A stretch of DNA of 64,000 nucleotides from Escherichia coli (GTDB taxonomy: Bacteria; Pseudomonadota; Gammaproteobacteria; Enterobacterales; Enterobacteriaceae): NCBI RefSeq assembly GCF_003334385.1, contig NZ_QOWN01000015.1; one strand, written 5' to 3'. The notes beneath the pieces are model-generated. The model had not been told where the DNA came from, ran no database searches, and was given only the letters and a program-made list of their open reading frames with translations. The position numbers were made by a program, and so were the translations under genes. Positions 60,495 to 60,690 of this stretch are shown piece by piece (position 1 is the first letter of the stretch; every line of letters starts with the position of its first letter).

Positions 60495-60512
60495 AAGCCG
60501 CATGTGCGGCTT
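60495..60512. terminator. Hairpin AAGCCGCATGTGCGGCTT at rlmC 3' end; A-run upstream gives a U-tail on the minus strand
   Basis: 7-bp stem with 4-nt loop immediately after rlmC stop; near-identical copy at 60665..60682 on the other side of the REP cluster. Confidence 0.5.
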
Positions 60513-60542
60513 CAGATTGCTGACAAAGTGCGCGTTGTTTAT

Positions 60543-60641
60543 GCCGGATGCGGCGTAAACGCCTTATCCGGCCTACAAAAGCGTGCAAATTCAATACATT
60601 GCATGGGCCATGTAGGCCTGATAAGCGTAGCGCATCAGGCA
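60543..60641. repeat. REP/BIME cluster (two inverted REP units) between rlmC and artJ
   Basis: GCCGGATGCGGCGTAAACGCCTTATCCGGCCTACA and TGTAGGCCTGATAAGCGTAGCGCATCAGGCA. Confidence 0.8.
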
Positions 60642-60690
60642 ATTTTACCTTTGTCATCAGTCTCAAGCCGCGGTTGCGGCTTTCTGAATC

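Follow-up and report, generated by a model that had tools for sequence, protein, structure and literature searches.

Organization of the rlmC-artJ intergenic region

The DNA analyzed was a 64,000-nt stretch of Escherichia coli (contig NZ_QOWN01000015.1; referred to as the window), in which potI, ybjO, and rlmC on the plus strand are followed by artJ, artM, and artQ on the minus strand, with a 100% match to K-12 genomes. The convergent stop codons of rlmC (60490-60492) and artJ (60691-60693) are separated by a 198-nt spacer, and this spacer holds two similar 18-nt hairpins (hairpins 1 and 2) on either side of a bacterial interspersed mosaic element (BIME) made of repetitive extragenic palindromic (REP) units. 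This hairpin pair, which probably represents two copies of a single ancestral terminator hairpin, is the subject of this study. The features of the region were as follows.

59365-60492, plus strand: rlmC open reading frame, annotated as rlmC in K-12 and other genomes.
60490-60492, plus strand: TAA stop codon of rlmC, running straight into the A-run on the 5' side of hairpin 1.
60491-60496, minus strand: A6 on the plus strand, corresponding to the U6 tract of the minus-strand terminator (published 3' ends; terminator-like match in the scan).
60495-60512, no strand: hairpin 1, arms AAGCCGC and GCGGCTT around ATGT (AAGCCGCATGTGCGGCTT); probable left copy of the ancestral hairpin, and intrinsic terminator of artJ.
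60513-60664, plus strand: complete BIME-1 (RIP/RIB) of 152 nt, consisting of the A arm, Y REP, L linker, Z1 REP, and B arm.
60513-60528, plus strand: outer A arm CAGATTGCTGACAAAG, a motif also present in the gcd-cueO and fepA-entD copies.
60543-60576, plus strand: Y-type REP with a CTAC end.
60577-60611, plus strand: L linker, with a site resembling the integration host factor (IHF) consensus, ATTCAATACATTG, at 60589-60601.
60612-60641, plus strand: Z1-type REP GTAGGCCTGATAAGCGTAGCGCATCAGGCA.
60649-60664, plus strand: outer B arm CTTTGTCATCAGTCTC, with the same end in the fepA-entD, gcd-cueO, and ybiT-ybiU copies.
60665-60682, no strand: hairpin 2, arms AAGCCGC and GCGGCTT around GGTT (AAGCCGCGGTTGCGGCTT); probable right copy of the ancestral hairpin.
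60683-60690, plus strand: original right flank of the empty site, TCTGAATC, the same in empty alleles and unscored as a terminator tail.
60491-60690, minus strand: 3' untranslated region (UTR) of artJ, 200 nt, comprising hairpin 2, BIME-1, and hairpin 1 (full-length reads, Term-seq).
60691-61422, minus strand: coding sequence of artJ, the gene for an arginine-binding protein, with the stop codon at 60691-60693; the published transcription start site (TSS) maps to 61473.

An earlier inspection of the sequence (the original prediction) had described two 18-mers at 60495 and 60665, identical at 15 of 18 positions and both forming hairpins, around two REP units within 60543-60641. The sequence and a repeat search agreed with this description in full: the hairpins formed an 18-nt direct repeat of 83% identity with a start-to-start spacing of 170 nt, and the REP units were a Y type at 60543-60576 and a Z1 type at 60612-60641. 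The 7-bp stems were identical, and the central bases differed at three of four positions. No further occurrence of the stem pattern AAGCCGCNNNNGCGGCTT (14 specified bases) was found in the window, even with two mismatches allowed. Each copy folded locally on both strands (-13.8 to -17.7 kcal/mol including context), and the direct-repeat pair was part of an inverted repeat reaching further inward, with arms of 35 nt at 60494-60528 and 60649-60683 (83% complementary). The 216-nt stretch around the hairpins folded far more stably than shuffled sequence (z = -7.1 and -8.4).

The element between the hairpins contained a Y REP and a Z1 REP, inverted relative to each other and separated by a long L linker. 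This agrees with published accounts of BIME-1, in which a y/z1 pair present in single copy measures ~140 bp and the long linker binds IHF (PMC3333891, PMC1187871). The 152 nt at 60513-60664 aligned from position 1 to 152, with ~90% identity, to the fepA-entD BIME-1, which was the best hit in genomes having no BIME at rlmC-artJ, and the fepA-entD copy likewise started with CAGATTG and ended with CATCAGTCTC; because of this end-to-end alignment, the rlmC-artJ element was regarded as a complete BIME-1. Both of its ends were abutted by the hairpins with zero spare bases. We take the second REP to be of the Z1 (rather than Z2) type from the published consensus and from how it aligns with BIME-1s that likewise occur in single copy. 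Every one of the E. coli genomes compared (5,426/5,426; see below) had a place where at least 80% of the 152-nt unit was covered. The four closest-paralog matches all represented one locus, fepA-entD, and further copies were found at glnQ-ybiO, ybiT-ybiU, and gcd-cueO.

The 16-17 nt directly inside the hairpins were assigned to the arms of BIME-1, since CAGATTGCTGACAAAG recurred beside the Y REPs at 6449 and 18574. The B-type arm, which reads GARACTGATGACAAA from the outside inward, was found again at ybiT-ybiU, gcd-cueO, and fepA-entD, ending in …CATCAGTCTC at fepA-entD and in …CATCAGTTTC or …TTTA at gcd-cueO. That the 16-nt inward extension belonged to a duplicated target was rejected because the same motifs border other BIME-1 copies. 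The candidate IHF site ATTCAATACATTG had one mismatch to the consensus WATCAANNNNTTR, and the E2-type alleles described below carried a perfect one, AATCAATACATTG. The sole Rfam match above threshold was ES036 (RF02751, ES036/CssrF small RNA), which covered the L linker (60577-60619) with 42.2 bits against a gathering threshold of 37.6; partial matches to naRNA4 reflected generic REP similarity. The RF02751 family appears to model the BIME-1 linker rather than a locus-specific small RNA.

Alleles of the region in E. coli genomes

A 701-nt query was run over 5,426 complete E. coli genomes, the hits were sorted into length classes, and representatives of each class were compared by sequence, giving the following distribution.

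Empty allele: 1,463 genomes (~27%).
K-12-type allele: 1,702-1,737 genomes.
E2-type allele: about 1,450-1,500 genomes (~27%), counted as the 3,192 genomes with at least 80% query coverage minus the K-12 type.
Island or other allele: about 770 genomes (the remainder; estimated 14%).

The empty site of Nissle 1917 read TAA-AAAAGCCGCAGGTGCGGCTT-TCTGAATC-TTA, with a single hairpin in a 28-nt spacer (allele TAAAAAAGCCGCAGGTGCGGCTTTCTGAATCTTA). In Nissle, BCE049, and 2020CK-00188, the empty sites contained one hairpin and were exactly 170 nt shorter than K-12; ST131 was another example of this single-hairpin allele. The K-12 allele therefore corresponds to the empty site plus 170 nt, that is, BIME-1 (152 nt) plus one hairpin copy (18 nt). 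Among the empty alleles, the loops varied (AGGT, GGTT; the latter in 2020CK-00188), and the flanks were diverse.

The hairpin-BIME-hairpin structure was found in K-12, B-3008, and isolate 12. The 204-nt intergenic allele of the K-12 type showed only one difference among these strains, in the loop of hairpin 1 (ATGT in K-12 vs AGGT in B-3008 and isolate 12), whereas the flanking coding sequences of the same haplotypes differed by ~5%, the first differences being 40 nt away on the left and 7 nt away on the right. Since it is near-invariant across flanks of ~5% divergence, the K-12-type allele is probably young, and either it moved between haplotypes or its flanks were converted. The K-12-specific substitutions (~5%) clustered at the 3' ends of both genes, over the final ~110 nt in rlmC and ~175 nt in artJ (60380-60452 and 60697-60865); such clusters around a near-identical intergenic allele are a mosaic or gene-conversion pattern. 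No K-12-type BIME with a single hairpin was found in the 5,426 genomes by synthetic junction queries.

In the E2-type allele, the left hairpin was joined, through a junction identical to that of the K-12 type (GCGGCTT|CAGATTG), to a different and diverged BIME-1, which ended in …CATCAGTCTCAA|TTA. The E2-type BIMEs of three lineages were mutually diverged (83-90%) and had common derived characters that were absent from the K-12-type BIME, which was 89.5% identical to the fepA-entD copy and 82-86% identical to the E2-type BIMEs. Derivation of the K-12 type from the E2 type was rejected, because the E2 type lacks TCTGAATC and its BIME is less similar than that of fepA-entD. These comparisons suggest that the K-12-type and E2-type BIMEs were acquired separately, with an insertion point identical to the nucleotide and an identical orientation.

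Among the other alleles, EC10 (L003) carried an island between rlmC and artJ, with a sulfatase gene beside artJ. Island alleles were also present in cryptic Escherichia (L005, L006, and L009) and in Salmonella (L021 and L029); they had no AAGCCGC hairpin, and artJ had a different terminator hairpin there.

The hairpin in other genera

A scan for RlmC in species-representative genomes yielded 80 loci. Whenever artJ directly followed rlmC and no REP was present, one hairpin was found immediately 3' of the rlmC stop codon. The AAGCCGC/GCGGCTT stem itself occurred in Citrobacter amalonaticus (L010), Kosakonia (L064, L070, and L073), and Enterobacter sp. (L074), and Phytobacter massiliensis (L062) carried a single hairpin of this stem directly after the rlmC stop codon; the single hairpin of a second C. 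amalonaticus strain (L035) had the variant stem AACCCGC/GCGGGTT. By sequence, sites of this ancestral type, among them those of Nissle, BCE049, and 2020CK-00188, look bidirectional, with an A-tract on the 5' side and a T-tract on the 3' side (GCGGCTTTT(TT) in C. amalonaticus, Kosakonia, and Enterobacter sp.), and the T-run on the plus side was usually stronger in the relatives (GCGGCTTTTTTAT) than in E. coli. Since REP-less relatives and empty alleles were all single, the single, bidirectional-looking hairpin was considered to be ancestral.

The original prediction had proposed a comparison of orthologous intergenic regions, and had named a REP-less relative with both hairpins as the case that would contradict a duplication. 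The strains with the empty allele, and the REP-less relatives in which artJ directly followed rlmC, showed a single hairpin, and no REP-less relative carrying both hairpins was found among the loci compared.

Other insertions were observed at this site. In P. massiliensis (L062:2625-2743), the hairpin was followed by a REP bordered on both sides by CACGGT, and then by CGGTTGCAGGCTTT; the latter resembles the loop and right arm of hairpin 2 and may be a partial hairpin duplication, or a chance similarity. In Citrobacter (L015:2625-2789, L016:2625-2787, and L024:2625-2790), an element of ~115 nt resembling miniature inverted-repeat transposable elements (MITEs), with the ends ACTACACCGTT…AACGGTGTTAGC, was located in the loop of the orthologous rlmC-artJ hairpin (AAAGCCGCTTATC[…]GATAAGCGGCTTT), and its orientation was opposite between Citrobacter species.

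Transcription termination at the two hairpins

In a consensus scan, only the minus strand of hairpin 1 scored as terminator-like (GAAGCCGCACATGCGGCTTT followed by TTTATTGC). This strand (GAAGCCGCACAUGCGGCUUUUUU) had the structure of an intrinsic terminator: a GC-rich stem followed by a U-tract, with a local fold of -17.7 kcal/mol. The tail on the plus strand of hairpin 2, UUUCUGAAUCUU, was weak, U-rich, and not scored by the scan. No U-tract followed hairpin 1 on the plus strand (CAGAUUG) or hairpin 2 on the minus strand (GAGACUGAUGAC), where the arms of the BIME are located, and these two faces did not have the structure of a terminator.

MG1655 coordinates of published 3' ends were placed in the window using an offset fixed on the rlmC stop codon. 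In the Term-seq data of Adams et al. 2021 (Supp. file 1; PMC7815308), the sole nearby 3' end was 899644 on the minus strand, with the sequence …GAAGCCGCACATGCGGCTTTTTT|ATTGCTTCAC, which was classed as antisense to rlmC. In the SMRT-Cappable-seq data of Yan et al. 2018 (Supp. file 3, M9; PMC6131387), transcripts from the TSS at 900626 ended at a transcription termination site (TTS) at 899643: among 100 reads from this TSS, 23 stopped at the TTS and 5 read through. The same study paired TTS 899643 with the annotated RegulonDB terminator of artJ, centred at 899656. The window equivalents of 899644, 899643, and 899656 were 60491, 60490, and 60503 (the centre of hairpin 1), respectively, and the published 3' end on the minus strand coincided with the last U of the U6 tract. 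At this RegulonDB artJ terminator (60495-60512), a canonical hairpin was followed by U6, and both 3' end datasets agreed on the U-tract.

Hairpin 1, although proximal to rlmC, is thus the terminator of artJ, and the intuitive assignment of each hairpin to its nearest gene is reversed; Term-seq, which had been suggested as a check of which hairpin terminates which transcript, spoke against that assignment. Since the 3' end of artJ is at hairpin 1, its mRNA traverses hairpin 2 and the whole BIME. In annotation, the rlmC-adjacent hairpin belongs to artJ, and the K-12 artJ 3' UTR consists of hairpin, BIME-1, and hairpin (200 nt); in the ~27% of E. coli genomes with the empty allele, artJ would end ~30 nt past its stop codon. 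This variation among alleles could alter the stability of artJ mRNA and the extent to which rlmC and artJ transcripts overlap or are read through. On the plus strand, no 3' end of rlmC was listed at 8996xx-8999xx in Adams 2021, Yan 2018 had no entry for rlmC, and the TERMITe supplement had no entries for artJ or rlmC. Hairpin 2 may serve rlmC, at best as a weak terminator.

The spacer between artJ and artM (61590-61690) also contained REPs, a Y type at 61600-61629 and a Z2-like type at ~61645-61680, and this pair adjoined a strong terminator-like hairpin on the minus strand at 61541-61573.

Origin of the hairpin pair

We consider that the two hairpins are copies of one ancestral intrinsic-terminator hairpin common to the convergent rlmC and artJ, and that BIME-1 became fixed between them; our estimate of the probability of this reading is roughly 75%. 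The ancestral spacer would have followed the rlmC stop codon immediately and comprised, within ~28 nt, an A-run, a hairpin of the form AAGCCGC-loop-GCGGCTT, and a tail rich in T. The 152-nt BIME-1 would then have been fixed at the 3' foot of the hairpin, together with another copy of the 18 bp, in direct orientation, on the far side. This may have split the terminator: hairpin 1 would have kept the A-run (U6 on the minus strand), and hairpin 2 the weak tail UUUCUGAAUCUU. The extra copy was most likely a by-product of the insertion itself, namely a duplication of the target hairpin. Candidate routes would be staggered breaks at both feet of the extruded hairpin with subsequent fill-in, integration of an excised circle of BIME plus flank through hairpin homology, and repair-associated copying.

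The element was flanked by an 18-bp direct repeat that was present once in the empty site, as expected for a target duplication. The GGTT loop of hairpin 2 and the following TCTGAATCTTA were identical to the empty allele of 2020CK-00188 (L217), and hairpin 2 together with 60683-60693 was identical to the right half of an empty site found in nature. In L007, the single hairpin also had a GGTT loop in the same orientation as that of hairpin 2, and the reverse complement, AACC, was found in no allele. This loop orientation and the original right flank TCTGAATCTTA indicate that the duplication was direct, not inverted. The original prediction had offered two alternatives, a terminator hairpin duplicated when the BIME was inserted or expanded, and two independently evolved terminators. 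The former was borne out with respect to the duplication, since strains without the BIME and REP-less relatives carried a single hairpin in a region 170 nt shorter; its timing, at the insertion of the BIME, is the likeliest course suggested by these comparisons. The latter was contradicted by the empty sites and other genera, which held one hairpin of the same stem.

Several observations weigh against the duplication of a target hairpin upon insertion. The E2-type allele (~27% of genomes) has a BIME-1 but neither the second hairpin nor TCTGAATC; a BIME at this site need not bring a duplicate hairpin, or the duplicate can be lost. BHUCD02 (L220) carries hairpin 1, an E2-type BIME-1, hairpin 2, and then TCTGAATC. 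The latter allele was regarded as a recombinant because it resembles the E2 type in the left flank and B-3008 in the right flank, and for these mixed flanks it was rejected as an ancestor of the E2 type; homologous exchange therefore shuffles parts of the rlmC-artJ locus, and this accounts for the co-variation between the loop of hairpin 1 and the left-flank haplotype. Between the two loops, 2-3 of 4 positions differ, and both loops have counterparts in natural alleles with one hairpin; recombination of two alleles would also give this pattern. The length of the flanking repeat is not fixed among BIME-1 loci: 18 (rlmC-artJ), 5 (glnQ-ybiO), and 0 (gcd-cueO). Transposition of the IS200/IS605-type Y1 kind, the favoured model of REP mobility, leaves no target duplications (Ton-Hoang 2012, PMC3333891). 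In addition, a plus-strand 3' end of rlmC is in neither dataset; the expression of rlmC may be too weak.

That the hairpins evolved independently for rlmC and artJ and became alike by convergence is scarcely credible. Terminators commonly consist of GC-rich stems bordered by A/T runs, and the two loops do differ; however, the empty alleles contain one hairpin and fall short of K-12 by precisely the 170-nt repeat spacing, outgroup genera have one hairpin with the same stem, the 14 specified bases of the stem are unique in 64 kb, hairpin 2 and its flank are identical to a natural empty allele, and the mapped end of artJ lies at the rlmC-proximal hairpin. Copying of hairpin 2 in inverted form by intrastrand template switching, with the quasi-palindrome of the BIME extended outward, seems very improbable. 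The whole 190-nt region is indeed quasi-palindromic, with 35-nt arms and fold z-scores of -7 to -8, and the orientation of a palindromic hairpin is visible in the loop alone; this loop, GGTT, matches L007 and L217 in the direct orientation, whereas AACC is present in no allele, and what follows hairpin 2 is the right flank of the original site (TCTGAATCTTA) rather than the left one inverted. The change might also have run in reverse, from an older hairpin-BIME-hairpin structure in E. coli to single-hairpin alleles, through recombination between the 18-bp direct repeats that excised the element precisely. Deletion between such repeats around a long quasi-palindrome is mechanistically easy and would restore the exact empty sequence. 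A reversed direction is nevertheless improbable in view of the several genera that hold a same-stem single hairpin without BIME-1 at the site, of the diversity of empty alleles in loops (AGGT, GGTT) and flanks, and of the near-invariance of the K-12 type (1 difference/204 nt over diverged flanks), which suggests youth.

It is also unlikely, in our judgment, that the hairpin was not duplicated at insertion and that the pair resulted either from recombination between two BIME-1 insertions at opposite feet of the hairpin or from Campbell-style integration of a circle carrying BIME plus hairpin. These routes would explain why the loop of hairpin 1 corresponds to one natural allele and that of hairpin 2 to another, and exchange of allele parts is seen in BHUCD02. 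The BIMEs of the E2 and K-12 types were apparently acquired independently at one junction, BIME-1 ends abut hairpin feet at gcd-cueO and ybiT-ybiU, and TnpA_REP, being able to cut at a distance, could pick up sequence from the flanks (Ton-Hoang 2012). On the other hand, these routes need alleles that were not found (there was no K-12-type junction of stop codon and BIME in the 5,426 genomes), the K-12-type BIME is not chimeric, and more events are involved than in a single insertion with duplication followed by recombination in the flanks, which also explains the co-variation of the hairpin 1 loop with the left flank. Duplication of a single ancestral hairpin, most likely upon insertion of BIME-1, is therefore preferred.

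Footprints at other BIME-1 loci

The glnQ-ybiO BIME-1 (6449-6592) was absent in ST131 and O157, where the region was 143-144 nt shorter. TTAAG (the glnQ stop codon plus 2 nt) occurred once in the empty site and on both sides of the BIME in K-12; in this copy, the B arm was truncated, and the 8 nt to the left of the repeat differed between alleles. At gcd-cueO (L215, L216, and L112), the empty site TAA-CCATA-hairpin corresponded to the filled site TAA-GACTTGCT-[BIME]-hairpin, with no duplication and an 8-nt filler resembling the A arm; an extra unit of A arm plus Y REP was present in some strains. The ybiT-ybiU BIME-1 (18437-18589; compared with L089 and L090) abutted the terminator hairpin of ybiT, and its only variant was an internal deletion: in O157:H7, the B arm, one REP, and the A arm remain after loss of 73 nt. 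In B2 strains, ybiV replaces ybiU downstream, with a diverged BIME-1. The fepA-entD BIME-1 was essentially fixed in E. coli. A metagenome scan with the 14-mer CAGATTGCTGACAA returned nearly all chance matches and one usable E. coli-like locus (L112, gcd-cueO), and no BIME-1 was found in an extra 50-kb K-12 segment.

Footprints of 18, 5, and 0 nt do not fit a transposase with a fixed stagger; they also misfit the rule of no duplication in the Y1 transposition behind the TnpA_REP/RAYT model (PMC3333891). The rlmC-artJ junctions, GGCTT|CAG and TCTC|AAG, were not C^T sites, and tnpA_REP (the yafM locus) lies outside the window. At three of the five loci examined, the ends of BIME-1 abutted the foot of a terminator hairpin. 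A preference of BIME-1 for such feet, through a break-and-repair or replication-coupled route able to copy the whole hairpin to both sides, is a tentative and rather doubtful proposal; selection against disruption of genes and terminators in short 3' spacers could give the same pattern. If the proposal is true, the apparent double hit at rlmC-artJ, the abutment at gcd-cueO and ybiT-ybiU, and the 18-nt, 5-nt, and filler junctions would be natural footprints of REP/BIME insertion.

Comparison with known systems

Bidirectional intrinsic terminators between convergent genes are reportedly found genome-wide in E. coli by SEnd-seq, in work ascribed to Ju et al. in 2019. The empty and outgroup alleles at rlmC-artJ resemble these terminators: a single GC-rich, symmetric hairpin, preceded by an A-run and followed by a T-run, lies in the 28-45 nt between convergent stop codons. 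The K-12 allele differs in that the hairpin occurs twice around a BIME, each copy keeping one tract; furthermore, the plus-strand tract of E. coli is degenerate (TTTCTG), and termination on the minus strand alone is documented.

BIME-1, RIP, and RIB elements are said to go back to Gilson (1991), Oppenheim (1993), Boccard and Prentki (1993), and Bachellier (1994). The rlmC-artJ element shares with them the single-copy inverted Y and Z1, the long L with an IHF-like site, the length of ~140-150 bp, and the location at 3' ends of transcription units. This BIME itself is ordinary, and what is unusual is the 18-bp direct repeat of a host terminator on both sides. No description of a terminator hairpin duplicated around a BIME was found in the REP/REPIN/RAYT literature, in a search that did not cover Bachellier 1997 on BIME polymorphism. 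The components are textbook ones (BIME-1/RIP, a RegulonDB-annotated terminator) and the feature is mostly ordinary; the new part is the insertion footprint, which is modestly novel. According to a 2026 preprint, the mechanism of REP insertion in vivo is still not fully established. For this question, rlmC-artJ offers a series of filled, empty, and recombinant alleles (5,426 genomes), including the 18-bp hairpin duplication and an apparent second hit at the same nucleotide.

As with the target-site duplications of insertion sequences (IS) and MITEs, a direct repeat surrounds an element with imperfect terminal inverted repeats and is single in empty sites. Unlike these duplications, the 18-bp repeat is a whole hairpin, and the length of the repeat varies among BIME-1 loci (18, 5, 0); the Y1 HUH TnpA_REP (RAYT) family is not known to make duplications (Ton-Hoang 2012, PMC3333891). 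The region also resembles the REPINs of the REPIN/RAYT system (Bertels & Rainey 2011, PMC3116915, PMC3337134), in that an inverted REP doublet is the unit of gain and loss. Some classes of REPIN doublet have flanking A and T runs that were read as co-opted terminators (PMC3116915, PMC3337134); at rlmC-artJ, in contrast, it is the host hairpins, rather than the REP doublet, that carry the A-run and the T-rich tail.

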